Origin: Massilicoli timonensis
Lineage (GTDB): Bacteria; Bacillota_I; Bacilli_A; Erysipelotrichales; Erysipelotrichaceae
Reading direction: 5' to 3'
NCBI RefSeq assembly: GCF_900199515.1
Contig: NZ_LT963434.1
Location: 1,892,180-1,924,179 of the forward strand
DNA length: 32,000 nucleotides
This document shows positions 1,685 through 32,000 of the stretch, piece by piece. The position numbers and the translations under genes are program-made. Below the pieces are notes generated by a model. That model had not been told where the DNA came from and searched no databases. It saw only the letters and a list, made by a program, of their open reading frames with translations. The first letter of the stretch is position 1; every line of letters starts with the position of its first letter.

Positions 1685-2404
1685 ATGTCTACACCGCATA
1701 ATCAGGCAGCAAACGGCGAGATCGCTAAAGTGGTGCTGATGCCGGGAGATCCGCTGCGCGCCAAATACATTGCCGAAACATTTTTAGAAGATCCGACGAT
1801 GTTCAATACCGTGCGCAATATGTACGGCTATACCGGAACTTATAAAGGAACACGCATTTCCGTAATGGGAAGCGGCATGGGGATGCCTTCGATCGGCATT
1901 TACTCCTATGAACTGTTCTCTCACTATGATGTGGAGTGCATCATTCGCATCGGCAGCGCCGGCGCTTATACCGAGGAACTGCATTTATTCGATCTGGTAT
2001 TAGCAAGCGAGGCATGGAGCGAATCCACTTTTGCACTTGCCCAAAGCGGCGATGATGAAACGCGGCAGAAACCAAGTGCAAGGGTAAACGCAGCAATCAA
2101 AGAAGCAGCTGCTTCCTTGCAAAAACCATTAACGGAAGCCTGTATTCATTCCAGCGATGTGTTCTATCATGAAGCGAATGTGGATGGCCATCGGGAGTTT
2201 TATGCAAAGCATGGCTGTGTCTGTGTGGAAATGGAAAGCTTTGCGCTGTTTCACAATGCCAAAGTGCTGGGAAAACATGCGGCTTGTCTTTTGACGATAT
2301 CCGATTCTTTGGTAACGCATGAAGAGACTACGGCAAAGCAGCGAGAAAATTCATTTACCAATATGATGGAGGTGGCGTTAGAGGCCGCCCTGAAATTGGC
2401 ATGA
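1685..2404 (+). CDS. deoD: Purine nucleoside phosphorylase, DeoD type
   Basis: 239 aa. N-terminus TPHNQA..GEIAKVVLMPGDPLRAKYIAETFLED...YGYTGTYKG..ISVMGSGMGMPS and the C-terminal VCVEMES motif are typical of hexameric PNP. AAAGGAGG SD upstream. Confidence 0.9.
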   Translation: MSTPHNQAANGEIAKVVLMPGDPLRAKYIAETFLEDPTMFNTVRNMYGYTGTYKGTRISVMGSGMGMPSIGIYSYELFSHYDVECIIRIGSAGAYTEELHLFDLVLASEAWSESTFALAQSGDDETRQKPSARVNAAIKEAAASLQKPLTEACIHSSDVFYHEANVDGHREFYAKHGCVCVEMESFALFHNAKVLGKHAACLLTISDSLVTHEETTAKQRENSFTNMMEVALEAALKLA

Positions 2405-2453: not shown

Positions 2454-3500
2454 ATGAAACAAAGCATCACAACGGCTCTAATGGAGTGGTATGAAGAAAA
2501 TAAACGAGATCTGGCATGGCGCAGAGATCAGGATGCTTATCGGATCTGGGTAAGCGAGATCATGCTGCAGCAGACGCGGGTAGAGGCGGTCAAAAGCTAT
2601 TATGCGCGTTTTATGGAAGCGCTGCCGACATTAAGACATTTAGCAATGGCTGATGAGACAGAGCTGCATAAGCTGTGGGAAGGACTGGGCTATTATAATC
2701 GGGTCATGAACATGAAAAAATGCGCACAGATCTGTATGGAAAACTATGACGGCTGTTTGCCTGCTGATTATGAGGAATTACAAAAGCTGCCCGGGATCGG
2801 CAGCTATACGGCAGGCGCCATCGCTTCGATCGCTTATGATCTGCCGGTGTGTGCGGTAGACGGCAATGTCATGCGGGTATTTTCCCGCTTGTGTAATGAT
2901 GAAAGCGATATTGCCAAAGCGGCAGCGAAAAAACATTTTGAAGCGGTCGTCATGCAATATGTGCCAACGTGCGGTGCCGGCATCTTTAATCAGGCGATCA
3001 TGGAACTGGGCGCGCTCATCTGTGTGCCAAACGGCGCTCCCCATTGTTCCTTATGCCCGCTGGCATCGCTTTGCGAAGCGCATCGGCTGGGCATCACCTC
3101 AAAACTGCCGGTCAAAAGCGCCAAGAAAAAACGCCGTATCGAACAAAAAACGGTTGTCGTTTATCTTTATGAAGATCAGCTTCACTTGCGCAAACGTGAA
3201 GCCGGCGGTTTATTGGCTTCCCTTTACGAATTCGATGTTTATGAAGGCGTTTATGAGGAAACGCAATTAACGAACAAGCTGCAAGAAGCTGCTCACTTAA
3301 AGCAATTAGTACCTTTAGGCAAAGCAAAGCATATCTTTACCCATTTGGAATGGCATATGAACGGCTGGCTGGCGATCTTGCAGGAACCCTTTGATCAAGA
3401 TGGCATATGGGTGGATCTGGATACGTTAAATAAACAGTATGCTTTGCCAAGCGCTTATCAGCGCTATAAAGATGCCGTTGCCTTATGGCTGAAAGGATGA
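2454..3500 (+). CDS. mutY: A/G-specific adenine DNA glycosylase
   Basis: 348 aa. Has the HhH-GPD signature (WVSEIMLQQTRVEAV, LPGIGSYTAGAIASIAY), a 4Fe-4S cysteine cluster CVPNGAPHCSLCPLASLC, and a C-terminal MutT-like domain. AAGGAG SD upstream. Confidence 0.9.
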   Translation: MKQSITTALMEWYEENKRDLAWRRDQDAYRIWVSEIMLQQTRVEAVKSYYARFMEALPTLRHLAMADETELHKLWEGLGYYNRVMNMKKCAQICMENYDGCLPADYEELQKLPGIGSYTAGAIASIAYDLPVCAVDGNVMRVFSRLCNDESDIAKAAAKKHFEAVVMQYVPTCGAGIFNQAIMELGALICVPNGAPHCSLCPLASLCEAHRLGITSKLPVKSAKKKRRIEQKTVVVYLYEDQLHLRKREAGGLLASLYEFDVYEGVYEETQLTNKLQEAAHLKQLVPLGKAKHIFTHLEWHMNGWLAILQEPFDQDGIWVDLDTLNKQYALPSAYQRYKDAVALWLKG

Positions 3501-4123: not shown

Positions 4124-4903
4124 ATGGGGGTTATGGAAGTGAAGGAGAAAAACGGTCGGTTCATACGGACAGATGCGTCCATGCCGCTTCAGGTGCTGAA
4201 ATTCGGCGGCACTTCAATGCGTACACGCACGACGCGAAAAGCAGTCATCGCACATATCAAAACGCAGCGGGAGAAAGCAAAGCTGGTCGTCGTTGTTTCT
4301 GCGATGGGCAGATTTCGCGACCCTTATGCGACAGATACCCTGCTTTCCCTCGGTTCACTGAAAATGCGGAAAAAAGAACAGGCTTCCCTCGTGTCGATCG
4401 GGGAACAGTTGTCTGCCTTGACCTTGTGTGCGGAGCTGCTGGAAGAAGGAATCAGCGCCTGTACCCTTTCTTTTCTGGAAGCGGGGATCATCAGCGATCA
4501 GCACTATGATTATGCACAGGTCAAATATATGGATCCAAGCGGTATCTTAAAAGCATTGGAACAGTTTGATGTCGTGGTGGTCGGCGGCTTTATCGCCATA
4601 GATGAGGAGATGGAAGTAACGACGCTGGGCAGAGGAGGAAGTGATTACAGCGCGGTCTTGTTCGCCGATATGCTGGGATTAAAGGAAGCGATCATCTATA
4701 CCGATGTAAACGGCGTCTATGTGGAAGATCCCAAGCAGCAAAAGAACGCCCGCAAATATGAATATCTGAGCTATGGAAGCATGCTTGCTTTGCATTCACG
4801 GGTGCTGCATGATCGCTGTGTCGTATATGCGCGTGATCATCACATCCGCATTTATGTAAAAGGTACTTTCTCGAAAGAGGAGGGAACATGGATCGGTTCC
4901 TGA
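4124..4903 (+). CDS. Aspartate kinase-like amino-acid kinase, catalytic domain only (no ACT domains)
   Basis: Motifs KFGGTS, VVVVSAMG..TD.L, TLGRGGSDYSA and IYTDVNGVY.EDP. It ends (..GTFSKEEGTWIGS) where canonical aspartokinases continue into two ACT domains. The true start is uncertain: the internal ATG at 4181 (MPLQVLKFGG) matches the usual N-terminus, but no start has a clear SD. Confidence 0.7.
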   Translation: MGVMEVKEKNGRFIRTDASMPLQVLKFGGTSMRTRTTRKAVIAHIKTQREKAKLVVVVSAMGRFRDPYATDTLLSLGSLKMRKKEQASLVSIGEQLSALTLCAELLEEGISACTLSFLEAGIISDQHYDYAQVKYMDPSGILKALEQFDVVVVGGFIAIDEEMEVTTLGRGGSDYSAVLFADMLGLKEAIIYTDVNGVYVEDPKQQKNARKYEYLSYGSMLALHSRVLHDRCVVYARDHHIRIYVKGTFSKEEGTWIGS

Positions 4904-5622: not shown

Positions 5623-6612
5623 ATGAAAGCAAAACTTATTGCGGGCATCAGTGCGCTCGTTTTGGTCGTATTGTTATTGCTGATGTGGAAACCGCAGTCT
5701 TTTGAGGATCGCTTTGACGATGTGATGCAGGATCTGACATCTTATGAATTAGAAGGCGATATGGAAATTACCAAAGGGGAAGACATAAAGAGCTTTGCAC
5801 TGTCTGTCGCCTATCAGAAAAAGGAAAAGCAGGATCTGTTTCGGGTATCGCTCTATGATAAGGAGCTGAATCAGGAACAGACCATCATTCGCAATCAAGA
5901 CGGTGTATTCGTGGCAACGCCGAGCCTGAATCAAGTGTTTCAGTTTGAAGGGGATTGGCCGCTCAATACCCCGAAGCCTTATCTGCTTCAGTCAATGGCA
6001 GAGATCGTGAACAGTGAAAAGGCGGAAATCAGTGAGGAAAAAGAAGGTTACTTAGTGAAAAGCGAGGTTGACTATCCCAATAATCCGACTTTTGCCAAAC
6101 AGGAGATGATGTTTGATGAAGAAGGCAAGATCAAATGGATCCAGATCTTTGACAAAGATAACAGCACACAGATGAAGTTGGTTTTTCATACCTGCACTTA
6201 TAACAAAAAGGTAAAGGACAGCGTATTTGAGACGCCGAAGAAGCTGGAGCAGAAAACAGCGGCTGCCACCATCAGCGAAGCCGATCTGCCGCTTTATCCG
6301 ATGCAGGTGTTTGATGCGGTCCTGCAAAACCGCAGTGTGGTGGAAACCGGTGATAAAAAGCGTTATGTCATGGAGTATACGGGGGATAAGAACTTTACGG
6401 TCATTCAAAGTGTTTATGCGCCTGCAGAAGAAACAGAAGTGGTGCTGATGAGCGGTGAAATGGTCGATGCGCTGGATCTGATCGGCTTTTATGACGGCAA
6501 TCATATGAGTGCGATTCAAAATGGGGTGGAATTCAGCGTATTCAGCGATGATCTGTCTTTGGAGGAAATGATGCGGGTCATTTCCAGCATGCAGGTGGCA
6601 GTGATGAAATAA
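5623..6612 (+). CDS. Signal-anchored LolA-like / YdcC-like exported protein
   Basis: 329 aa. N-terminal hydrophobic anchor [22 protein letters not shown]. Size and beta-rich composition resemble B. subtilis YdcC (LolA-fold/DUF4367). AAAGGAG SD upstream. The stop shares one base with the mazF start (TAATG at 6610-6614). Confidence 0.6.
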
Positions 6613-6962
6613 TGATCAGACGCGGAGATGTATATTATGCGGATCTTTCGCCGGTAGTGGGCAGTGAACAGGGCGGTATGCGCCCGGTGGTCATTATCCA
6701 AAACGACAAAGGCAACCGTTATTCCAAAACGGTCATCGTCGCGCCGGTATCCACGCGTATGAGCAAGCCGCCCATCCCCACCCATGTGATCTTTTCCGAT
6801 GACGCTTTGCATTATGTATCGATGATCTTATGTGAGCAGGTACGTACGATCGACAAAAAAAGGCTGGGACAATGGCTTTGTCATCTAAGCGGCGAAACAT
6901 TGGAAAAGGTTGATCAGGCAATCAAAATATCGCTTGGTTTAGAGCGAAATATTGGTTCTTGA
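6612..6962 (+). CDS. mazF: MazF/EndoA (PemK family) mRNA interferase toxin
   Basis: 116 aa. [42 protein letters not shown].....K...PTHV......L...[14 protein letters not shown] is nearly colinear with B. subtilis EndoA (NdoA). Confidence 0.9.
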
Positions 6963-7917: not shown

Positions 7918-8084
7918 ATGCACGCAAAAGATATGGGACGTCAATGGTGCGTCAAGGGGCATAAAAGTGTTTGACCGTGGTGCAGGTGTCGAGAAAAGGC
8001 GTGTTTTTTTCTTCTCATAATAGGTAGTATTTTGTGTATAAGTATAGTATAATATGAGCGTTTAAGAAAATGGAGGATATTGAT

Positions 8085-9743
8085 ATGAGTTTGATTGAAA
8101 CTGAATTGAAACAAGGGATCAAGTCGGCTTTGAAACAAGTATATGACTTGGAAGTAGAAAACGACTTTGTCGTAATCGAAATCCCGAAAAATCCCGATAT
8201 GGGAGATTATTCTACAAATGTGGCAATGCGTTTGGCAAAGCAGCTGCATAACAGTCCGCGTGCGATTGCGGAAGGAATGTTGGAAGCGATCAAGGAAGCA
8301 AGTCCGTTTGTAGAAAGCGCCGAAGTAGCAGGTGCAGGTTTCATCAACTTCAGGATCAAGAAATCAAAAATTGCCGATGTAATCCATACCGTATTAAAAG
8401 AAGGGGAACATTTTGGGGAAAATGAAAGCGGGAAAGGTGTATCGATCCTCGTCGAATATGTATCTGCGAACCCGACCGGCGATCTGCATTTGGGTCATGC
8501 GCGCGGTGCGGCGTGGGGCGATTGCATTACGCGTCTGTTAAATAAATCGGGCTATAACTGCCTGCGCGAGTTCTATGTGAATGATGCGGGCGTGCAGATC
8601 ACCAAGCTGGGACAGTCCCTGCTGGCACGTTATTTACAGTTGTTCGGCATTGATGCCGCATTGCCGGAGGACGGTTACCACGGGCAGGATGTTGCGGATA
8701 TCGCCAAGATCGTAAAAGAACAGGAAGGCGATAAGTGGGTCAATGTTTCGGCCGATCAGGAAGAAGAACGCCTGCAGCATTTCCGCAAGGAAGGAATCCG
8801 TCTGGAATTGGACAAGATCAAGCGCGATCTGGATTACTTCCGCGTACATTTTGATTCTTGGATCTCTGAACAGAGTTTATATGACCGCGGTCTGGTAGAG
8901 GAAACTTTGAAAAAGATGGAAGACATGGGGCTGACTTACGAAAAGGATGGCGCTGTCTGGTTCAAGACGACCGAGTTTGGACGTGATGATAAAGACCGTG
9001 TACTGCGCAAGCAGGATGGTACTTACACTTATTTTGCACCGGATATTGCCAATCACATGGATAAGATCGCCCGCGGCTATCCGAAGATGGTAAATCTTTG
9101 GGGTGCGGATCACCATGGTTATATCGCCCGTATGAAAACAGCGATCCATGCGATGGGATATGGCTGGGATGATATGGAAGTAGATATCATCCAGATGGTG
9201 CGTTTGGTGGAAGACGGCAAAGAGGTAAAAATGTCGAAGCGTGCCGGCAATGCGATCACGATTCGCGAGCTGGTTGATGAAGTCGGTGCCGATGCGGCGC
9301 GTTACCTGTTCGTATCCAAAGCGGTAGATACGCATATGGATTTTGATATCGCCTTGGCAAAACGGAAGAGCAATGACAATCCGGTTTACTATGCACAATA
9401 TGCACATGCACGTATGTGCTCGATCCTGCGGCAGGCGCCTGCCTTAAAGGAAGTAAACGAATATACACGTTTGACAAGTGAAAAGGAAAAGGCGTTATTG
9501 AAGCTGATCGCCGAGTTCCCGGAAATGGTTGCCGATGCGGCGCTTACTCGTCAGCCGAATAAAGTATGCAACTATATTCAGAAGCTGGCACAGCACTTCC
9601 ATAGCTTCTACAATGCCTGCAAGGTGCTGGATGACAAGAATCCGGAGCTTTCCAATGAACGTCTGGCATTGTTGAATGCGACCAAGATCACGTTAGCCAA
9701 TGCGTTGGATCTGGTTGGTGTCAGCGCACCGGAAAGAATGTAA
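8085..9743 (+). CDS. argS: Arginine--tRNA ligase
   Basis: Class I aaRS with HIGH-type motif (PTGDLHLGHARG) and an MSKR-type KMSKS variant (VKMSKRAGN). Has the N-terminal Arg-tRNA-synthetase domain and a C-terminal DALR anticodon-binding region. GGAGG (8072-8076) sits 8 nt before ATG 8085; the ORF-track start at 8070 overlaps the SD. Confidence 0.92.
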   Translation: MSLIETELKQGIKSALKQVYDLEVENDFVVIEIPKNPDMGDYSTNVAMRLAKQLHNSPRAIAEGMLEAIKEASPFVESAEVAGAGFINFRIKKSKIADVIHTVLKEGEHFGENESGKGVSILVEYVSANPTGDLHLGHARGAAWGDCITRLLNKSGYNCLREFYVNDAGVQITKLGQSLLARYLQLFGIDAALPEDGYHGQDVADIAKIVKEQEGDKWVNVSADQEEERLQHFRKEGIRLELDKIKRDLDYFRVHFDSWISEQSLYDRGLVEETLKKMEDMGLTYEKDGAVWFKTTEFGRDDKDRVLRKQDGTYTYFAPDIANHMDKIARGYPKMVNLWGADHHGYIARMKTAIHAMGYGWDDMEVDIIQMVRLVEDGKEVKMSKRAGNAITIRELVDEVGADAARYLFVSKAVDTHMDFDIALAKRKSNDNPVYYAQYAHARMCSILRQAPALKEVNEYTRLTSEKEKALLKLIAEFPEMVADAALTRQPNKVCNYIQKLAQHFHSFYNACKVLDDKNPELSNERLALLNATKITLANALDLVGVSAPERM

Positions 9744-9753
9744 TAGAAAAGAG

Positions 9754-9780
9754 CAGTGAACGCGCGTTCACTGTTTTTTT
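9754..9780 (+). terminator. Rho-independent terminator after argS
   Basis: CAGTGAACG-cg-CGTTCACTG (9-bp stem) followed by T7. Confidence 0.85.
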
Positions 9781-9914
9781 GTACCGAAGCAAAGGATAGA
9801 AACGCGCATGCCGTATGTTTTGAAAAAAAGCAAAGGAAAACGCACGAACCGTTTTATATTCGCTGCATAAGGATAAAAGAAAGGATAGGAATACGGAGAA
9901 AACCGTCTTGTAAA

Positions 9915-9939
9915 TGTGATAAAAATATTTATTTTCACA
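9915..9939. promoter_or_regulatory. 25-bp imperfect palindrome TGTGATAAAAATATTTATTTTCACA (candidate operator)
   Basis: 9 of 12 symmetric positions pair, and the outer arms TGTGA/TCACA are perfect. It lies in the long gap upstream of arcA and overlaps a possible -35 region for a TGt-TAATAA extended -10 at about 9944-9952. Confidence 0.4.
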
Positions 9940-9976
9940 AGTGTGTTAATAATTGGAATTATGTATAAATAAGCGC

Positions 9977-10047
9977 GGTTCTGCCATGTTAGTAATGGTA
10001 TCCGTGCGGCTTGAAAGCAGTGTGATACCATTTGAACCGGCAGGATC
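9977..10047 (+). other. Nested two-tier hairpin (possible structured RNA element)
   Basis: Outer stem GGUUCUGCC (9977-9985) pairs with GGCAGGAUC (10039-10047): 9 bp including 2 G-U. Inner stem AAUGGUAUC (9994-10002) pairs with GAUACCAUU (10024-10032): 9 perfect bp. I recognise no family. Confidence 0.35.
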
Positions 10048-10308
10048 GTAAGAGGTGTTTATCTTGATGCGATTGTCATAATGAGGTGCAGAACGGCAAA
10101 TGAAAGCCTTTACATTGATGAAAATGCCGTATTTTTCAGTAAAAATAGGTTTTTTTAGGCGATTTGACGATGATTTTGGAGAATATACAATCTCAGACTA
10201 GGCGAAATGTCCTACAAGGGGATGAAGGAAAGTGTAAGATAAACGTGTAAAGGGAGTGAAACCCTTACAACATTCCGCGGTAGTTGTAGAATTTCATTTT
10301 TCAGTTTC

Positions 10309-10322
10309 TGTAAGCGATTACC
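10309..10322. promoter_or_regulatory. cre-like site (CcpA catabolite-responsive element) upstream of the arcA promoter
   Basis: TGTAAGCGATTACC fits the TGNAANCGNWNNC core of the cre consensus WTGNAANCGNWNNCW. It lies 19 nt upstream of the -35 hexamer. Confidence 0.5.
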
Positions 10323-10340
10323 ATTTGTGAAATAGTGGGA

Positions 10341-10369
10341 TTGACAAAGCAGAGCACAGTCATTATGGT
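10341..10369 (+). promoter_or_regulatory. Proximal promoter of the arc operon
   Basis: TTGACA (10341-10346), 17 nt spacer, TATGGT (10364-10369). A GAAGGAGAG SD precedes ATG 10404. Confidence 0.55.
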
Positions 10370-10403
10370 CTACATGAGTAGAAGAAGGAGAGATTAGTAC
10401 ATT

Positions 10404-11651
10404 ATGACAGCAATTCATGTAACAAGCGAAATCGGCAAGCTTAAAAAAGTGCTTTTGCACAGGCCTGGTAGAGAGTTATTGAACTTGACACCAGACACTC
10501 TGGAAAGATTATTATTCGATGATATTCCTTTCTTAAAAGTGGCACAGGAGGAGCATGATGCATTCGCCAAGATCCTGCGCGACAATGGTGTTGAAGTTGT
10601 TTATCTGGAAGATTTAATGGCTGAGACACTTGCTGCAAACCCGGGACTGCGTGAACAATTCTTAAAACAGTTCATCGACGAAGCCGGTATCAAGACTGAA
10701 AAATATAAAAAGATCGTATATGATTTCTTAAATTCATACGATGATAATAAAGAATTGATCTTAAAGACGATGGAAGGCATCAATGTAAACGAGCTGGATT
10801 CCAAGCTGCGCAACATTGAAAATTCACTGGTCGATCTGGTAAGCGATGAAAGCAACTTTATCGCTGATCCGATGCCGAACTTATACTTTACCCGCGATCC
10901 ATTCGGATCGATCGGCAACGGTGTTTCTTTGAACCGTATGTATTCAGTTACCCGTAATCGTGAAACGATCTATGCGGAATACATTTTCGATCATCATCCG
11001 GAATACAAAGGACAGGTAGACAAATACTTTGACCGTTATAATCCATTCCATATCGAAGGCGGCGATATCCTGAACCTGAACGATCATGTTCTGGCAATCG
11101 GTATTTCTCAGAGAACACAGGCAGACGCAATCGAAATGATCGCGAAAAATCTGTTCTCACATAAAGATGCGAAGATCGATACGATCTTGGCGTTCAACAT
11201 TCCTAACAGCCGTGCCTTCATGCACTTGGATACGGTATTCACACAGATCGATAAAGATAAGTTTACCGTGCATCCGGGTATCATGGGACCGCTTCAGGTG
11301 TTTGAGATCACTGCTGATCCAGACAACAGCAATGAAGTGCTGGTAAAAGAAATGAACGACAAGCTGGAAAATATCTTAGCTAGATATTTAGGCATTCCGA
11401 AGGTAGAACTGATCATGTGTGCCGGCGGCGACAAGATCGCGGCAGAACGCGAACAGTGGAATGACGGTTCTAATACATTATGTATCGCACCGGGCGTGAT
11501 CGTTGTTTACGAACGTAACGATGTGACCAATGCGCTGCTGAAAGAAAAAGGATTGACCGTATTGGAAATGCCGAGTGCCGAACTGTCAAGAGGACGCGGT
11601 GGTCCTAGATGTATGTCCATGCCGTTGGTGCGTGAAGAAGTAGAATGGTAA
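10404..11651 (+). CDS. arcA: Arginine deiminase
   Basis: 415 aa. N-terminus HVTSEIGKLKKVLLHRPGRELLNLTP, and the C-terminal catalytic Cys context GGPRCMSMPL. Confidence 0.95.
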   Translation: MTAIHVTSEIGKLKKVLLHRPGRELLNLTPDTLERLLFDDIPFLKVAQEEHDAFAKILRDNGVEVVYLEDLMAETLAANPGLREQFLKQFIDEAGIKTEKYKKIVYDFLNSYDDNKELILKTMEGINVNELDSKLRNIENSLVDLVSDESNFIADPMPNLYFTRDPFGSIGNGVSLNRMYSVTRNRETIYAEYIFDHHPEYKGQVDKYFDRYNPFHIEGGDILNLNDHVLAIGISQRTQADAIEMIAKNLFSHKDAKIDTILAFNIPNSRAFMHLDTVFTQIDKDKFTVHPGIMGPLQVFEITADPDNSNEVLVKEMNDKLENILARYLGIPKVELIMCAGGDKIAAEREQWNDGSNTLCIAPGVIVVYERNDVTNALLKEKGLTVLEMPSAELSRGRGGPRCMSMPLVREEVEW

Positions 11652-11707
11652 GAGCGACTTACCGATAAGCGACGAAAGTAAGAATTAAGAAAAGGAGATT
11701 AAGAAAA

Positions 11708-12700
11708 ATGCCAGTTAATTTACGTGGAAGAAACTTTTTGAAATTATTAGACTATTCAACAGAAGAAATTTTGTATCTGATCGAGCTTTCTAAAGAAATG
11801 AAACGCTTGAAACTGACGCGTACACCGCACAAATATTTAGAAGGAAAAAATATCGTGCTGCTGTTTGAAAAAACATCTACGCGTACCCGCTGCTCTTTTG
11901 AAGTAGCCGGCTATGAATTAGGTATGGGCGTTACCTACCTGGATCCGGGTTCTTCACAGATGGGCAAAAAAGAATCGATCGAAGATACAGCGAAAGTATT
12001 AGGACGTTTCTATGATGGTATCGAATACCGCGGTTTCTCTCAGGAAATGGTAGAGACATTAGCGGAAAATGCAGGTGTTCCGGTATGGAACGGTTTGACT
12101 GACATGTTCCACCCAACCCAGATGATCGCCGATATGATGACGATCGAAGAAAACTTCGGCAGATTAAAAGGTCTGAACTTCACCTTCTTCGGAGATGCGC
12201 GCAACAATGTCGGCAACTCTTTGATGGTAGTATGTGCAAAACTGGGTATTAACTTTACCGCATGTGGACCAAAAGAACAGATGCCTGCTGAAGAATTAGT
12301 AGAAACCTGCAAAAAGATCGCAGCGGAAAACGGTTCGACGATCACATTGACCGATGATGTAAAAGTCGGTGCAACCGGTGCACATGCGATCTATACGGAT
12401 ATTTGGGTATCCATGGGTGAACCGGATTCTGTTTGGGAAGAACGTATCAAACTGTTAAGTCCATATCAGGTAAACAAAGAAGTAATGGCTATGGCAGCGC
12501 CGGATGCGATCTTCATGCACTGCTTGCCTTCTTTCCATGACCTGCATACAACAGTGGGACAGGATATCCATGAAAAATTCGGTCTGCCGGAAATGGAAGT
12601 TACCGATGAAGTATTCTTATCTCGCCAGTCAAAAGTATTTGACGAAGCAGAAAACCGTATGCATTCAATCAAAGCGATCATGTATGCGACTTTGATGTAA
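11708..12700 (+). CDS. arcB: Ornithine carbamoyltransferase (catabolic, by context)
   Basis: Motifs [20 protein letters not shown] (DxxxSMG ornithine site) and HCLP. Located between arcA and arcC. Confidence 0.93.
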
Positions 12701-12714
12701 TCAGGTGATCGAGC

Positions 12715-13650
12715 ATGGGAAAAAAGTTAGTCATCGCACTTGGCGGGAACGCTTTAGGAAATACGCCTGAAGAACAGCTGGAATTAGTGAAAGACACAGC
12801 GAAAGCGATCGTTGATCTGGTAAAAGAGGGCAACGATGTGATCATCGGACATGGAAACGGTCCGCAGGTCGGCATGATTAACTTGGCTATGGATTATGCG
12901 GCAAACGGAGGAGCAGGGACTCCTTCGATGCCGTTCCCTGAATGCGGGGCAATGAGCCAAGGCTATATCGGTTATCACTTACAGCAGGCGATTCAGGAAG
13001 AACTGCGTAGAAACAAGATTCAAAAAGGCTGTGCCGCAATCGTTACCCAAGTCGTGGTAGACGCTGCGGATGAAGCATTTAAGAACCCTACAAAACCGGT
13101 AGGAATGTTCTATGACAAAGAAACCGCTGATCAGTTGGCGGCAGAAAAAGGCTTTACGATGAAAGAAGATGCCGGACGTGGTTATCGCCGTGTGGTACCT
13201 AGTCCGAAACCGGTACGCATCGTAGAACTGGATATGGTGAATCAGCTGGTAGAAGCAGGCAATATCGTGATTACGGTCGGCGGCGGCGGTATTCCGGTCG
13301 TGGAAAGCGCAGACGGCTTAAAAGGTGTTGCTTCCGTCATTGATAAAGACCGTTCCAGCGCCAAATTGGCAATGGATATGAAAGCGGATATGCTGGTGAT
13401 CTTAACGGCAGTAGACCGCGTCTGCATCAATTTCAATAAACCAAACCAGCAGGAACTGGCAGAAATCAATGTTGCACAGGCAAAACAATATATCGACGAA
13501 GGTCATTTTGCACCTGGCAGCATGTTGCCGAAAGTAGAAGCATGTCTGGATTTTGTGGAAAATAATCCGGACGGCGTGGCGCTGATTACTTCGCTGCAAA
13601 GAGCGAAGGATGCGCTGCATGGGGAAACAGGTACTATCATCAGAAAATAG
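12715..13650 (+). CDS. arcC: Carbamate kinase
   Basis: 311 aa. N-terminus KLVIALGGNALG, then HGNGPQVG and the ..VITVGGGGIPV motif of the amino-acid kinase fold. Confidence 0.93.
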   Translation: MGKKLVIALGGNALGNTPEEQLELVKDTAKAIVDLVKEGNDVIIGHGNGPQVGMINLAMDYAANGGAGTPSMPFPECGAMSQGYIGYHLQQAIQEELRRNKIQKGCAAIVTQVVVDAADEAFKNPTKPVGMFYDKETADQLAAEKGFTMKEDAGRGYRRVVPSPKPVRIVELDMVNQLVEAGNIVITVGGGGIPVVESADGLKGVASVIDKDRSSAKLAMDMKADMLVILTAVDRVCINFNKPNQQELAEINVAQAKQYIDEGHFAPGSMLPKVEACLDFVENNPDGVALITSLQRAKDALHGETGTIIRK

Positions 13651-13706
13651 TATCACGATCAATTTATCCAAAATTCAATCAAATATAAAGAAAGAGAGGA
13701 CGGATT

Positions 13707-15119
13707 ATGGAAAAGAGAAAAGGGTTTAAGATGCCTTCCGCCTTCACCGTGTTATTTTTGATCATCATCATATTATGGATCGTAACACAGTTTATCGGCG
13801 GCAGCGTAACACCTGCGAAGCTGCATCAATTATTCATGGCCGCTCCGAAAGGAATGGTAGATGCGATTGATGTATCCTTCTTCGTTATGGTTCTGGGTGG
13901 TTTCCTTGGCGTTGTTACGAAGACCGGTGCTCTTGATGCCGGTATCGCCAGGTTGGTAGCCAGAATGAAAGGCAAAGAAATCATGATGATTCCGGTGCTG
14001 ATGTTTGTATTCTCATTAGGCGGAACTTCATACGGTATGGCGGAAGAAACGATCGGTTTCTATCCGATGATCGTTGCGACGATGATGGCCGCAGGTTTCG
14101 ATGCTTTGACCGGATGCTCCGTTATTTTGATCGGTGCAGCACTTGGATGTCTGGGTTCTACGGTCAATCCGTTTGCGGTCGGTGCCGGCGTTGATGCCGT
14201 TACCAGTGCAATGGGTGAGGGATTTGTGGCAAATCAGGCTGTCCTGATCGGACTCGGCTTGATCTTGTGGCTGACTGCTTATGTTGTATGTACTTGGTAT
14301 GTTATGCGTTATGCAAAGAAAGTGCAGGCGAATAAAGCAGCGACATTGTTAAGCGCAGAAGAAGTTGCCGATTCGGAAAAAGAATACGGAAAAGGCGACA
14401 ATGAAGAAGTGCTGGAATTTACCGGCAAACGAAAAGCAGTCATGGTCATCTTTGCATTTGCGTTTGTTGTGATGATCCTCGGTATGATTCCTTGGGGTTC
14501 ATTCGGCATTACGATCTTCGATAGCTGGACCGGTTGGCTGACTGGTTTACCGTTAGGTCAATGGTACTTCCAGGATTTACAGCTATGGTTCTTCTTAATG
14601 GCAATCATTGTCGGTCTGGTATATGGACTGAAAGAAAAAGAAATCGTTGATTCTTTCATTTCCGGTGTTGCGGACATGGTATCTGTTGCATTGGTCGTAG
14701 GCGTTGCGCGCGGTATCTCTATCTTGATGGCAGAAACCGGCTTGCAGGACTATATCCTGACTGCGGCTGCGAACGCATTACAAGGCGTTAACTCTGGATT
14801 ATTTGCAAGTATGTCATACATTGTATATTTAGGATTGTCCTTCTTAATTCCTTCTACTTCAGGACTTGCATCCGGTTCCCTTCCGGTATTTGGACCGCTG
14901 GCCGCAAAACTCAGCCTGAGTCCGGAAGTCATGATCATGATTTTCGTAGCTGCCTGTGGTTTGGTAAACTTTATTACACCGACTTCCGGTGTCGTAATGG
15001 GTGGTCTTCAGACATCCCGTGTGGAATGGACGACTTGGATCAAGTTTACGGCTAAGCTGCTCTTAATGTTGCTTGTCATCGATATCATTATCCTATCTGT
15101 TGCAATGATGATGCTGTAA
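13707..15119 (+). CDS. arcD: Putative arginine/ornithine antiporter of the YfcC/ArcD (DcuC-related) family
   Basis: 470 aa polytopic membrane protein. N-terminus KGFKMPSAFTVLFLIIII is typical of YfcC-like carriers. Its position directly after arcC matches streptococcal-type arcD. Substrate is inferred from context only. Confidence 0.75.
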   Translation: MEKRKGFKMPSAFTVLFLIIIILWIVTQFIGGSVTPAKLHQLFMAAPKGMVDAIDVSFFVMVLGGFLGVVTKTGALDAGIARLVARMKGKEIMMIPVLMFVFSLGGTSYGMAEETIGFYPMIVATMMAAGFDALTGCSVILIGAALGCLGSTVNPFAVGAGVDAVTSAMGEGFVANQAVLIGLGLILWLTAYVVCTWYVMRYAKKVQANKAATLLSAEEVADSEKEYGKGDNEEVLEFTGKRKAVMVIFAFAFVVMILGMIPWGSFGITIFDSWTGWLTGLPLGQWYFQDLQLWFFLMAIIVGLVYGLKEKEIVDSFISGVADMVSVALVVGVARGISILMAETGLQDYILTAAANALQGVNSGLFASMSYIVYLGLSFLIPSTSGLASGSLPVFGPLAAKLSLSPEVMIMIFVAACGLVNFITPTSGVVMGGLQTSRVEWTTWIKFTAKLLLMLLVIDIIILSVAMMML

Positions 15120-15135
15120 AATAATCATAGTATAT

Positions 15136-15162
15136 AAAAAACCGGAACTTTCCGGTTTTTTT
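15136..15162 (+). terminator. Rho-independent terminator after arcD
   Basis: AAAAACCGGA-actt-TCCGGTTTTT with a T-run. Confidence 0.85.
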
Positions 15163-15195
15163 ATGTTATAATGAAAAAAGATAGAGGTAGCAGTT

Positions 15196-16443
15196 ATGTC
15201 AAAACTAATTGAAATTCAAAATCAGTTCTGTTCTAATTATGACCGCAAAAAATTCTGCGGTTTTGATATGGAAGTAACAGAAGCGCCTACAAAGCCGCTG
15301 ATCCATCAGACTGCCCGCTTTTTGTTTTTCATGAAAGGGCATGGGAGGCTCATCGTAGATGATATCGAATATGAAATCAAACCTTATACACTGGTAGCCA
15401 TCATGCCATGGGAGATCACGAAGATTTCCGCAGTCGAGGAACCGCTTCAAAACTATCGGATCGTGTATAATTCGGAGGTTACGAATAACATTATCAAAAC
15501 GCTGTATAATACGGATAATGAGATTCTGGATATCATTGATTCGATCACGAAGCATCCGGTCGTCTACTGCAACAGTGATGAAGCCAATCAGATTCGCTAT
15601 ATCTTGCGTGATATTCGAAGTGAAGTAGGCATGGAATCGTTTATGGAAGAAACCAACGAGGAAGAAATGGGCAACATTTTTGTCATCAGCAAAGTGATCG
15701 AGCTGATCGTAATTTTCAAAAGAGTAATGAATAAGAGTCAAATGGAAGGCAGACGTCTGGAGAAAAGTGATGATAAAAATCAGATGTTGAAATACATTTA
15801 TTCTCATGCCAGTGAGAAGCTGACACTGAATCGAATGTCCGATCTGTTTTATATGAGTGAATCTGCCATCAGCAAGTATATTCAGGATACGACAGGTTTG
15901 ACCTTTAATGATCTATTGAACGAGATCCGAATTGAGAAAGCCATTACCTTTTTGATGTATACAGATCTAACGCTCAATGAAATTGCGGCGATCACCGGCT
16001 ATGTCGATGCTTCACACATCTCAAAGGTGTTTGCTTCTCGGATAGGAACGACGCCGAATGAATATCGTAAGATCTATCGCAAGATGAATCGCATCGTCAA
16101 AGAAAAGGAAAGGCAGCTGTCCTATGAAATCATTACTTATATTCATAACAATTTTGATCAGGAAGATATGAATGTGGCTTCGGTAGCCAGCCGTTTTCAG
16201 CTCAGTATTGTGGAATTAAACCGCATTTTGATCACGCAGGTCGAAAAGAATTTTGATGACTTGATCAATGTGCTGCGCATCAATAAGGCATGTGAACTGC
16301 TGCTTTCTACGGATGAAGCGATTGCCGATATCGCGATTGAAATCGGCTACAATAATACGAAAACCTTTTCCCGCAACTTTATGAAGATCAAGAATATGAC
16401 GCCGGGCGTATTTCGCAAATCTATCGCATTGCAGGAAAAATAA
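15196..16443 (+). CDS. AraC/XylS-family regulator with a cupin-like N-domain and two tandem AraC DNA-binding domains
   Basis: 415 aa. First DNA-binding domain about residues 195-293 (LTLNRMSDLFYMSESAISKYI ... LTLNEIAAITGYVDASHISKVFASRIGTTPNEYRK). Second about residues 310-410 (MNVASVASRFQLSIVELNRIL ... IADIAIEIGYNNTKTFSRNFMKIKNMTPGVFRK). Has its own TGtTATAAT -10 at 15164-15172. Confidence 0.85.
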   Translation: MSKLIEIQNQFCSNYDRKKFCGFDMEVTEAPTKPLIHQTARFLFFMKGHGRLIVDDIEYEIKPYTLVAIMPWEITKISAVEEPLQNYRIVYNSEVTNNIIKTLYNTDNEILDIIDSITKHPVVYCNSDEANQIRYILRDIRSEVGMESFMEETNEEEMGNIFVISKVIELIVIFKRVMNKSQMEGRRLEKSDDKNQMLKYIYSHASEKLTLNRMSDLFYMSESAISKYIQDTTGLTFNDLLNEIRIEKAITFLMYTDLTLNEIAAITGYVDASHISKVFASRIGTTPNEYRKIYRKMNRIVKEKERQLSYEIITYIHNNFDQEDMNVASVASRFQLSIVELNRILITQVEKNFDDLINVLRINKACELLLSTDEAIADIAIEIGYNNTKTFSRNFMKIKNMTPGVFRKSIALQEK

Positions 16444-29471: not shown

Positions 29472-30764
29472 ATGTTTACAAGAATTTTAACAAAGCTGGG
29501 GTTTACAAAAGAAGAAATTAGCTGGATCTTATATGATGTCGGCAATTCAGCGCAGGTATTAACGACGATGACGGTTTTGTTTCCGCTTCTGATCGCAAAG
29601 ATCACACCGGGTGACAGCAGCGTCTATGTCGGATGGGCCAATACGATCTATGGTCTGATCTTGGCGTTTGCCTCGCCGATCCTTGGAACGGTCGCTGATT
29701 ATAAAGGGCAGAAGATGCGCTTGTTTAAGATCTTTCTTTATATCGGAATCATTGCCGGTTTTATTTTGGCTTTGCCTTTTATAGACTATATGACGGCGAT
29801 CGTCGTGTTCTGCATCGCCATGCTGGGTTATAATGGCACGATCATTTTCTATGATGCTTTCATCGTCGATGTGTGCGATGATGATCGAGTAGATCACGTT
29901 TCGGCAGCAGGCTATGCCTGGGGCTATATCGGTTCCACTTTGCCGTTTTTGATCTTTATCATTCCTTTTGCGATCGTAACGCTTTTTGGCGATGCGAACG
30001 GCACCGCACATATCATGGGCTTTGATCTGACCTATCGGGTGGCGGTATTTATCTCGATGTCGCTGGCAGTGCTTTGGTGGGCGATCTATTCTTTGCCGAT
30101 GTTAAAAAATGTAAAACAGAAACAGTACCATGAACCGGTCGATCATGTCGTAAAAGAATCCTTTGGCCGGTTATGGCATACGTTTAAGAATATCCGACAA
30201 AATAAAAATATCTTTTTATTCTGCTTATCTTATTTCTTTTATATCGACTGTGTCAATACCGTAATCAAAATGGCGGTTTCGCTGGCAACGGAAATGGGCA
30301 TCAGTGATGTCATGAGCCTGGTCGTCGTGATTTTGATCAATCTTCTCGCTTTTCCAAGTGCGATCTATTTTGGCAGACTGATCGAACGCTTTGGCTCTAA
30401 AAAGATGATCTTTGCGGGCATCGTCGGTTATTTAGGCGTCGTGATCGCCGGTGTTTTGATTCCTTATCATCCATCACTGATCTGGGTGGTGGCATTATTG
30501 GTAGGATTGTTTCAGGGAGGGATTCAATCCGTATCCCGCTCTTATTTTGCGAAGCTGATCCCGAATAAGGAGGATTCCAATGAATACTTTGGCTTCTTTT
30601 CCGTCTTTTCCAAATTCTCCGCAATATTAGGGCCGATGTCAATTTCCATTATTATCATGATGACCGGGGAAACGAATTTAGGTATATTGGGACTGATCCC
30701 GCTGATGCTGATCGGGGCATTTATCTTGTTATTTGTAAAAGATCCTAAATCAGAAAAGCATTAA
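29472..30764 (+). CDS. MFS transporter, UMF1/YxiO-like family
   Basis: 430 aa with about 12 TM helices. N-terminus LTKLGFTKEEISWILYDVGNSAQVLT is typical of UMF1 (ATG22-like) MFS proteins. TGtTATAAT -10 at 29432-29440. Confidence 0.8.
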   Translation: MFTRILTKLGFTKEEISWILYDVGNSAQVLTTMTVLFPLLIAKITPGDSSVYVGWANTIYGLILAFASPILGTVADYKGQKMRLFKIFLYIGIIAGFILALPFIDYMTAIVVFCIAMLGYNGTIIFYDAFIVDVCDDDRVDHVSAAGYAWGYIGSTLPFLIFIIPFAIVTLFGDANGTAHIMGFDLTYRVAVFISMSLAVLWWAIYSLPMLKNVKQKQYHEPVDHVVKESFGRLWHTFKNIRQNKNIFLFCLSYFFYIDCVNTVIKMAVSLATEMGISDVMSLVVVILINLLAFPSAIYFGRLIERFGSKKMIFAGIVGYLGVVIAGVLIPYHPSLIWVVALLVGLFQGGIQSVSRSYFAKLIPNKEDSNEYFGFFSVFSKFSAILGPMSISIIIMMTGETNLGILGLIPLMLIGAFILLFVKDPKSEKH

Positions 30765-30780
30765 GATCAAGACAATAGGA

Positions 30781-30837
30781 GCGCTTTTGTAATGGCAGGC
30801 ATGGCTTGTGCGTCTGCACACAAAAGCGTTCTTTTAT
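30781..30837 (+). terminator. Terminator after the MFS gene
   Basis: GCGCTTTTGT (30781-30790) pairs with ACAAAAGCGT (30820-30829), followed by TCTTTTAT. Confidence 0.6.
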
Positions 30838-30978
30838 ATTCTGTTTTCTTTACGATCGCTTTTTCAATCATTTCATTTGATCAAAGAAAAAGATAAAAGA
30901 ATGAGAGCATAAAAAGAGAAGAAAGCAAAACAAGGACGAAAACGCCAAGAGAAGCGATGAATAAAGAAAAAAGAATAC

Positions 30979-31007
30979 TTGACGAATTCGCAAAACAGGA
31001 TTATACT
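30979..31007 (+). promoter_or_regulatory. Promoter of the DAACS transporter leader
   Basis: TTGACG (30979-30984), 17 nt spacer, TATACT (31002-31007). Confidence 0.6.
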
Positions 31008-31029
31008 GCAAGTGTAAAAAAACAAGATG

Positions 31030-31120
31030 CCTTTAAGTTTCTCCAGAGAGGGAAGCAAGGAAGATCACATATGTTTTCAACGAGCAAACGCGTATCTTCC
31101 ATTGGTAGATGCGTTTTTTT
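31030..31120 (+). promoter_or_regulatory. PyrR-type transcription attenuator (binding hairpin, antiterminator, terminator)
   Basis: UCCAGAGAGG at 31042-31051 inside hairpin 31030-31060. The alternative pairing is CAAGGAAGAU (31056-31065) with AUCUUCC-A-UUG (31094-31104). The terminator is AAACGC(GU)AUCU (31086-31097) paired with AGAUGCGUUU (31107-31116), with a U-run to 31120. Confidence 0.6.
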
Positions 31121-31142
31121 ATAGCAAAAGGGAGGAAAGCAT

Positions 31143-32000
31143 ATGAAACAGAAAAAACAAAACAGTGCTGCCAACAAGCTGGCCATTCAAATGGCGATCG
31201 CACTGGTGCTCGGTTTGATCGCCGGTGCAGGATGTATTTTGATCCGTGAACAGATGATGGCAAACGGACAGGCAGATCTCTGGAATACGATCAACTCAGT
31301 CTTATTCCAGGATATTACGGCAGAAGACGGGGCAAACGCCTTTGGTATCTTCTACATTTTGGGGCAATTATTTATCAAAGCATTACAGTTGGTCATCGTG
31401 CCGATGGTGTTCACTTCTATTACCTTGGCGATGTGTACGATTTCCGATACGCGTAAATTAGGGCGTATTTCTTATAAAACGATCAAATACTTCCTGATTA
31501 CTTCTTTTGCGGGATTGATCGTTGCCGGAATTGTCGGTATGAGCGTTTATCATTTTGGACTGTTTGATGTGGAAGTCAGCAATCTGAGTGCAAGTGCAGG
31601 TTCTACCGGTACCAATCCTTTGCTGGTTGTCGTAAATGCGATTCCATCTAATATTATCGGGGCATTTGCGGATAACGGTGCGGTATTGTCGATCGTGTTC
31701 TTGGCAGTTGCCTTCGGACTTTCCATGCATAAACTGGGAGATAAGGTAACGGTATTAAAGAAATTCATGGAAGAGATCAATGACATCGTAACTGTCATTC
31801 TAAGCTTTGTCATTACGAAATTCGGTCCTGCCGCAATCTTTGTACTGCTTACGAGAACCTTTGCGGTATACGGCATCGAACATTTGAAACCGGCTGCCGC
31901 ATATGTCATTGCCACAACACTGACGCTGCTGGTATTCTTGATCGTCGGTTATGAGTTGTTTATCAAAGTATTTACCGGATTAAATCCGTTTAAGTTCACC
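31143..32000 (+). CDS. Dicarboxylate/amino acid:cation symporter (DAACS/SDF family), N-terminal 286 codons, runs off window
   Basis: Not in the ORF track because it is open-ended. My translation gives MKQKKQNSAANKLAIQMAIALVLGLIAGAG...GQLFIKALQLVIVPMVFTSITLAM...LSIVFLAVAFGLSM... The hydrophobic pattern and the ..L.M.V.P.VF.S.. motif are typical of GltP/TcyP/SstT-like carriers. GGGAGG SD at 31130-31135. Confidence 0.8.
   Translation, partial: MKQKKQNSAANKLAIQMAIALVLGLIAGAGCILIREQMMANGQADLWNTINSVLFQDITAEDGANAFGIFYILGQLFIKALQLVIVPMVFTSITLAMCTISDTRKLGRISYKTIKYFLITSFAGLIVAGIVGMSVYHFGLFDVEVSNLSASAGSTGTNPLLVVVNAIPSNIIGAFADNGAVLSIVFLAVAFGLSMHKLGDKVTVLKKFMEEINDIVTVILSFVITKFGPAAIFVLLTRTFAVYGIEHLKPAAAYVIATTLTLLVFLIVGYELFIKVFTGLNPFKFT

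Follow-up and report, generated by a model that had tools for sequence, protein, structure and literature searches.

The final part of the 32,000-nucleotide stretch of Massilicoli timonensis DNA analysed here (contig NZ_LT963434.1; hereafter the window) very probably carries, at positions 30979-31142 of the forward strand, a promoter and a PyrR-type transcription attenuator that control the gene of a carrier of the DAACS family; PyrR binding and nucleotide dependence are predicted from the RNA. The mechanism is the textbook one, and what is new is its target, which is conserved across Erysipelotrichaceae, Clostridium, Terrisporobacter and Peptostreptococcaceae. An attenuator with three alternative structures had been proposed for this place in a preliminary description made from the letters alone, and it is now supported by the folds, by the alignment to the Rfam PyrR family (RF00515), by the conservation of the leader and by the presence of the same hairpin in front of pyrimidine (pyr) genes. 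The same description held that the carrier is not a standard member of the PyrR regulon, and the literature agrees with this. The carrier is not listed in the RegPrecise-based reconstruction of the PyrR regulon in 255 genomes, in which the Clostridiaceae rows contain only pyrP, carAB, the pyrB operons and codBA (PMC3766115). A full-text literature search, which did not extend to the full hit lists of RegPrecise and Rfam, found nothing relevant linking PyrR with a symporter, dicarboxylate, aspartate or a transporter.

The hairpin at 31030-31060 has the sequence CCUUUAAGUUUCUCCAGAGAGGGAAGCAAGG. Its lower stem is formed by CCUU (31030-31033) and AAGG (31057-31060), followed by an internal UAA, and its upper stem of seven base pairs (31037-31043 with 31050-31056) presents the loop CAGAGA (31044-31049). 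The hairpin and its CCUU/AAGG base are as first described; the AGAGA pentaloop given at that time was not reproduced, as both ViennaRNA and Rfam close a CAGAGA hexaloop with the pair C31043-G31050, which is a trivial difference. All parts of the RF00515 hairpin, i.e., CCUU/AAGG, UAA, the upper stem and a C-N-G-N-G-A loop within UCCAGAGAGG, were found exactly at 31030-31060. The pattern CCTTTAA-N6-CCNGNGAG-N6-AAGG occurred once in the window with up to two mismatches allowed, compared with 0.00 occurrences in 100 shuffles, and this, together with the Rfam match, places the hairpin far beyond chance. Positions 1-115 of the RF00515 model align end to end with 31026-31122 (47.8 bits, E 8.8e-6 in a search of 301 nt). 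Posterior probability is high for the aligned binding hairpin and terminator; in the antiterminator hairpin, the carrier leader has 9 nt in place of about 32 model positions. Weak matches of the leader to further Rfam families, THF-II and PK-repBA among them (E 0.075 to 9), were taken as chance.

The same type of hairpin was searched for in other organisms with the pattern CCTTTAANNTAGYCCNGNGAGRYTANTAAGG, which had been built from six carrier leaders, and at least 120 loci were obtained from the JGI metagenome collection. Among the matches listed, the first downstream open reading frame (ORF) was callable at 111 sites and could be classed by Pfam. Phosphoribosyltransferases of about 180 aa (PyrR) followed the hairpin at 47 of these sites, uracil permeases (Xan_ur_permease) at 32, aspartate carbamoyltransferase (pyrB) at nine and CarA at one; the remaining 22 were SDF carriers, all 61-71% identical to P0001, a near-identical relative of the carrier in the window, and any other gene was found at none. 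The same element thus precedes pyrR, pyrP, pyrB or carA at 89 of the 111 sites. The identification of the phosphoribosyltransferases as PyrR was confirmed through one of them, an ORF of 178 aa, whose homologues carry this name at NCBI. Hairpins before uracil permease genes are one base away from carrier hairpins. So the hairpin marks the PyrR regulon, with the carrier as the only non-pyr gene behind it among the matches listed.

The carrier leader was also folded without constraints as nascent transcripts of increasing length. As long as the transcript ends at or before 31085, the minimum free energy (MFE) structure is the complete PyrR-type hairpin (-10.4 kcal/mol). At transcript ends 31100 and 31105 it is the antiterminator (-16.7 and -18.0 kcal/mol, respectively), in which the lower stem is open and the upper stem is kept, and in the full-length leader it is the hairpin plus the terminator (-22.4 kcal/mol). 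The three structures appear in the expected order, and the pairing that the preliminary description had proposed between the 3' half of the hairpin and the AUCUUCC region is the one seen in the nascent folds (Table 1). The antiterminator encloses a small hairpin (31072-31086), and it shares G31059-G31060 with the lower stem of the binding hairpin and 31092-31100 with the 5' arm of the terminator. Because its pairing consumes this arm, it blocks the terminator, and the two structures exclude each other in the nascent folds as they do in RF00515. The antiterminator thus acts as a kinetic trap, formed first unless the lower stem is held closed. As for the terminator, folding confirmed what had been claimed, i.e., its overlap with the antiterminator partner, its seven U residues and its distance of 22 nt from the ATG at 31143. 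Its stem pairs 31090-31097 with 31107-31114, with inner pairs 31099-31100/31104-31105, and the U run covers 31114-31120. A simple consensus terminator scanner missed it, owing to a bulge in the stem.

In the Bacillus subtilis paradigm (RF00515) it is the role of PyrR to hold the lower stem closed. If the carrier leader works in the same manner, PyrR charged with uridine mono- or triphosphate (UMP/UTP) would bind the nascent hairpin at 31030-31060 when pyrimidines are plentiful and would keep the CCUU/AAGG lower stem closed. AUCUUCC (31094-31100) would then be free to complete the terminator at 31090-31114, and RNA polymerase would stop at the U run, before the ATG. Under pyrimidine shortage, the protein would not bind, and the emerging segment 31092-31100 would pair with GGAAGAUC (31059-31066) and open the lower stem; the antiterminator would prevent the terminator and the carrier would be expressed.

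The gene is a separate transcription unit, because a strong terminator ends the unit of the preceding MFS (Atg22-like) gene (ORF 29472-30764, identified by Pfam), and it is monocistronic. The promoter stands as first described, with TTGACG and TATACT separated by 17 nt (consensus scan), and TTGACA/TATAAT-like boxes lie at the equivalent relative place in orthologous loci. Judged from its position, transcription probably starts near 31014-31016. The stretch 30880-30975, between the MFS terminator and the carrier promoter, is unusually purine-rich.

Table 1. Features in and around the carrier leader, in coordinates of the window
Feature	Position	Strand	Evidence
Intrinsic terminator of the upstream MFS (Atg22-like) gene	30777..30840	+	Fold -28.9 kcal/mol, z -3.97, followed by UCUUUUAU
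Sigma-A-type promoter	30979..31007	+	-35 TTGACG 30979-30984, 17-nt spacer, -10 TATACT 31002-31007; 10/12 consensus matches
PyrR-binding hairpin (predicted; anti-antiterminator)	31030..31060	+	Rfam RF00515 alignment, fold -9.5 kcal/mol, covariation
Antiterminator	31059..31100	+	Nascent-transcript folding; GGAAGAUC 31059-31066 pairs with G31092 and AUCUUCC 31094-31100
Intrinsic terminator	31087..31120	+	Fold -10.8 kcal/mol, z -3.15; aligns with the RF00515 terminator
Shine-Dalgarno GGGAGG 31130-31135 and start codon ATG 31143-31145	31130..31145	+	Sequence reading
DAACS/SDF carrier, 5' part (286/449 codons), cut by the window end	31143..32000	+	Pfam PF00375, E 1.3e-43

Relatives of the carrier are annotated merely as "dicarboxylate/amino acid:cation symporter" and come from Erysipelotrichaceae, Absiella, Clostridium paraputrificum, Terrisporobacter and Peptostreptococcaceae. 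P0001 (449 aa) is near-identical, many others are 61-74% identical, and the nearest named relatives are from metagenome-assembled genomes (MAGs) of Erysipelotrichaceae at 70% identity. The leader was present directly upstream of the ATG in all ten orthologous loci fetched (62-100% identity; Erysipelotrichaceae, Absiella, Clostridium paraputrificum and Terrisporobacter). Its layout is CCUUUAA, stem, a C(A/U/C/-)G(A/U)GA loop, stem and AAGG, then a terminator with its U run. In each of six orthologous loci scanned with Rfam at a relaxed threshold, the only PyrR match was a full-length one of 42-50 bits, placed immediately before the carrier. Across 12 distinct orthologous hairpins, 93.9% of the cells were paired (L021 was left out of this count, as MAFFT put its one-base loop deletion outside the loop), and compensatory double changes were found in four of the seven upper-stem pairs. 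The covariation score of the hairpin was 0.303 against 0.155 in shuffles, none of the 500 shuffles reached the observed value, and all slid registers were far lower. In the nascent folds of about 12 of the 18 foldable orthologous leaders, CCUUA, with which the terminator 5' arm starts, is paired with UAAGG in the 3' strand of the hairpin, so that two CCUU segments compete for one AAGG. A search of genome contigs with the protein fragment gave only Lachnospiraceae paralogues, which are about 45% identical, and distant Halomonas carriers; a PyrR leader was found upstream of none of them, so that they serve as a negative control.

The gene neighbourhoods of the orthologues are not conserved, except for acn/citZ-icd upstream in three Erysipelotrichaceae MAGs (L023, L030 and L031, 1-4000). 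In these MAGs the genes of citrate synthase and isocitrate dehydrogenase immediately precede the carrier and that of aconitase is divergent, a set belonging to the 2-oxoglutarate/glutamate branch; the carrier still keeps its own promoter and PyrR leader. The clostridial and Peptostreptococcaceae leaders (L027 3850-4003; L045, L103, L113 and L036) have a conserved triple of segments that is absent from the window: a 5' flank UAGGAUACC that overlaps the lower stem of the hairpin, GGU(G/A)UCCUA just after the terminator, and the Shine-Dalgarno sequence AGGAGGAUAC. The middle segment is able to pair with either of the other two, and the triple looks like a putative anti-Shine-Dalgarno/anti-anti-Shine-Dalgarno layer of translational control on top of attenuation. 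In L074, a purine riboswitch (2113-2213, minus strand, 73.5 bits) lies divergently upstream of the PyrR leader of the orthologue (2653-2683, plus strand).

Several observations weigh against a PyrR attenuator at this place. The covariance-model search that the preliminary description had suggested was significant by its E-value (8.8e-6), but the score of 47.8 bits is below the curated gathering score of 54 and does not give membership in RF00515 at the curated threshold; the default Rfam scan of the window, which uses the gathering threshold, returned tRNAs only and no PyrR match. At equilibrium the hairpin plus terminator (-22.4 kcal/mol) is favoured over the antiterminator (about -18 kcal/mol), a balance under which read-through would depend on co-transcriptional kinetics. 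No pyrR or pyr gene was found in the window or in 358 kb of fetched orthologue loci. A protein search started from a low-GC metagenome PyrR gave Defluviitalea- or Vallitalea-type proteins and no PyrR of Erysipelotrichaceae or C. paraputrificum. The presence of pyrR in this genome is therefore assumed, and the argument for the trans factor is that the cis element has been kept, with compensatory changes, across families. Finally, the pattern used in the metagenome scan was built from carrier leaders, which inflates the 20% share of the carrier, and for this reason the informative point of the scan is that the remaining genes all belong to the canonical PyrR regulon.

It could be argued from the low RF00515 score, from the assumed pyrR and from the central antiterminator region, which is shorter than in the Rfam model, that the leader is simply a structured 5' untranslated region with a terminator which looks like a PyrR site without being under the control of this protein, being either a constitutive attenuator or the site of another factor. 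We consider this very unlikely. The hairpin is of the same type as those before pyrR, pyrP, pyrB and carA, no other class of gene was found in the 111 cases among the matches listed, and its conservation across families with compensatory changes also speaks against such an explanation. The reason for the low score is the short middle part, and canonical leaders are affected as well. When eight canonical pyr leaders with this hairpin were scored with RF00515, five passed the gathering score (54.3-62.5 bits) and three did not (the pyrR/pyrP leaders of L041, L052 and L062); all six carrier leaders tested alongside were below it. The sub-threshold score of the carrier leader is thus not disqualifying. 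The curated threshold of RF00515 under-calls PyrR sites with a short antiterminator, and carrier leaders, which score under it, are missed by routine annotation and by the 255-genome reconstruction of the regulon.

The regulated gene is a DAACS carrier, as had been claimed. The fragment in the window scored 150 bits with Pfam SDF against a cut-off of 27.9 (TC 2.A.23), and the reading frame that starts at 31143 has no stop before the end of the window and its translation agrees with P0001, in which the motifs SSSAATLP, NM(D/N)GT, PGAG and LNVxGD of helical hairpin 1 (HP1), transmembrane helix 7 (TM7), HP2 and TM8 are present. As TM8 lies beyond the window, it was read from P0001, which is encoded in contig L022 behind a leader near-identical to that of the window. 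Residues were mapped to GltPh via the HMMER alignment, with the GltPh motif GIDAILDMGRTMVNVTGD checked as residues 388-405 of solved chains. The TM8 motif of the carrier family is AINRP(I/V)EMLVT(S/A)LNVxGD in 115 of 120 orthologues and in the metagenome copies too. Compared with GltPh, D390 is changed to N, D394 to E and R397 to V, while T398, N401 and D405 are kept; E417 and V420 of P0001 occupy the positions of D394 and R397. The HP2 tip reads GTPAAPGAG instead of GTAGVPGAG in 117 of the 120 orthologues. NMDGT is changed to NMNGT in 91 of them, and the species of the window keeps NMDGT. The Asp of this motif is a ligand of the Na3 site in GltPh, so the ion coupling of the NMNGT orthologues may differ.

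When the subfamily was assigned with NCBIfam models, the carrier fell below every cut-off: 162 bits against 513 for DctA, with Val at the position of the TM8 arginine; 142 against 638 for GltP, with neither Asp nor Arg at the D394 and R397 positions, which leaves it outside GltP/GltT; and 93 against 308 for SstT. It was reported that R397 of GltPh binds the side-chain carboxylate and that in the mutant R397C aspartate transport is lost and replaced by transport of serine, alanine and cysteine (PMC5750217). Based on the altered site residues and the low NCBIfam scores, the canonical aspartate, glutamate or C4-dicarboxylate site is not present in this carrier.

This speaks against the rationale of the preliminary description, according to which the attenuator would control an importer of the aspartate/glutamate type. 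In that explanation, the carrier feeds aspartate carbamoyltransferase when pyrimidines are scarce. Aspartate is indeed a direct precursor of the pyrimidine ring, the best matches among solved structures are aspartate transporters (9bgz, E 2e-67; GltTk and GltPh, E 1e-48 to 1e-54), and the regulatory part is as well supported as in the explanation preferred here. However, Val, Glu and Asn replace R397, D394 and D390 in 115 of the 120 orthologues, the HP2 tip is altered, the GltP equivalog score is far below its cut-off, and a single change at R397 is enough to abolish aspartate transport in GltPh (PMC5750217). An aspartate importer under PyrR control is therefore improbable, and aspartate or glutamate as the substrate is likewise unlikely. 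One residue keeps the acidic option alive and weighs against a monocarboxylate substrate: there is a conserved Arg at the GltPh-391 position, one turn earlier (R414 in P0001), which might compensate for the lost R397.

The loss of the TM8 arginine is also the hallmark of the neutral carriers ASCT1/2, and it converts GltPh to serine, alanine and cysteine transport (PMC5750217). The attenuator could accordingly control an importer of neutral amino acids such as glutamine, asparagine or serine. Such an importer would supply carbamoyl-phosphate synthetase and CTP synthase with nitrogen or carbon, or would yield aspartate via asparagine. Glutamine is a substrate of the first pyrimidine step, and the position at which D394 binds the alpha-amino group still carries an acidic residue (Glu). 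On the other hand, the known PyrR regulons hold pyrimidine-specific genes only (PMC3766115), so that it would be unusual for pyrimidines alone to control a general amino-acid carrier. The carrier also scores low with SstT, and the nearest paralogue clade lies in LamB/YcsF lactam-type clusters and not in amino-acid operons. A neutral amino-acid importer is thus conceivable but doubtful, and ranks second among the candidates for the substrate.

Because the control is pyrimidine-specific, a substrate that supplies pyrimidines is likely, and because the arginine that binds the second carboxylate is lost (R397 to V, with D394 to E), a monocarboxylate may be supposed. We tentatively propose a ring-amide monocarboxylate precursor, either orotate or dihydroorotate, a candidate that is plausible but far from secure. 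It is known that DctA, a DAACS carrier, imports orotate in enterobacteria (PMC13328217). The sister clade, i.e., the Lachnospiraceae paralogues of about 45% identity, shares the signature of E394 with a hydrophobic residue at 397 (TM8 AINRPVEMALLPLNV), and its gene neighbours are LamB/YcsF (PxpA), CT_A_B, BCCP, biotin carboxylase and a 2-hydroxyacid dehydrogenase (L002 240-6214; L003 2037-4350; L001-L013). These neighbours suggest uptake of a lactam carboxylate by the sister clade, for instance of 5-oxoproline, whose chemistry is close to that of dihydroorotate. Possibly, then, though with considerable doubt, the carrier family could be an unrecognised PyrR-controlled importer of orotate or dihydroorotate in gut Bacillota, with a re-tooled DAACS site and related to the lactam-cluster sister clade. 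The Lactococcus orotate transporter OroP was considered as a homologue and rejected, being TC 2.A.7.21.4 (DMT) and not DAACS. A tblastn search of P0001 against plasmids found only carriers of at most 35% identity.

Whichever substrate applies, the regulatory link offers a way to approach the function of an anonymous transporter subfamily whose binding site is unusual, and it predicts uracil-repressible expression together with uptake of orotate/dihydroorotate or of neutral amino acids. Should the carrier import a pyrimidine precursor, the PyrR regulon would gain a salvage route in common gut anaerobes; if that precursor is truly orotate or dihydroorotate, ring-amide monocarboxylates would be a new substrate class for the glutamate-transporter superfamily.

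The element can be compared with several known systems. With the pyr attenuators of B. subtilis (BL1-BL3; RF00515) it shares the hairpin consensus CCUU...UAA...stem...C-N-G-N-G-A loop...AAGG, the logic of anti-antiterminator, antiterminator and terminator, and the placement between the promoter and the regulated ORF; it differs in its DAACS target, its short antiterminator and its score (47.8 bits, below 54), and PyrR binding is predicted here. The carrier gene resembles the PyrR-attenuated pyrP/uraA of Bacillota in that one transporter gene has a promoter and a PyrR attenuator to itself, but pyrP is an NCS2 carrier of known substrate, whereas the present one belongs to the DAACS superfamily and its substrate is a prediction. 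DctA keeps the TM8 arginine and loses the acid at D394, and the carrier family is the reverse, with the arginine lost and the acid at 394 kept. Both are DAACS carriers, and an intermediate of the pyrimidine pathway is imported by DctA in Salmonella and E. coli (PMC13328217), yet the carrier is far below the DctA cut-off and DctA is not known to be under PyrR control. Like ASCT1/ASCT2 and GltPh R397C, the carrier is without the TM8 arginine that binds the side-chain carboxylate. Unlike them, it has Val instead of Cys or Thr, Glu394 instead of Asp, Asn390, and NMNGT in most orthologues, and unlike ASCT1/2 it is a bacterial carrier under riboregulation. A COG1301 (DAACS) gene under a cis-acting leader RNA is known from Bacillales, where the leader is the ydaO riboswitch for cyclic di-AMP; in the 255-genome reconstruction such genes occur only under ydaO and in only two Bacillales genomes (PMC3766115), and both the RNA class and the signal differ from those of the carrier leader.

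The rest of the window contains deoD, mutY, a truncated aspartate-kinase domain, mazF, tRNAs, argS, an arcABC cluster, htrA, an amylase, a PTS-ascorbate IIC gene, cinA and the MFS carrier. The ORF at 4124-4903 (259 aa) matches aspartate kinase only in its catalytic (amino-acid kinase) half, with 214 bits against a cut-off of 474 and without ACT domains, and may be a truncated or split aspartokinase. An ORF of 329 aa at 5623-6612, with no Pfam or NCBIfam match, shares one base with the beginning of a MazF/PemK toxin gene (6612-6962) and is far larger than the usual MazE antitoxin. At 8070-16443, argS is followed by an arginine deiminase cluster composed of arcA (10404-11651), ornithine carbamoyltransferase (11708-12700) and carbamate kinase (12715-13650), then by a putative basic amino-acid antiporter of the YfcC/DcuC type (13707-15119) and an AraC-family regulator (15196-16443).

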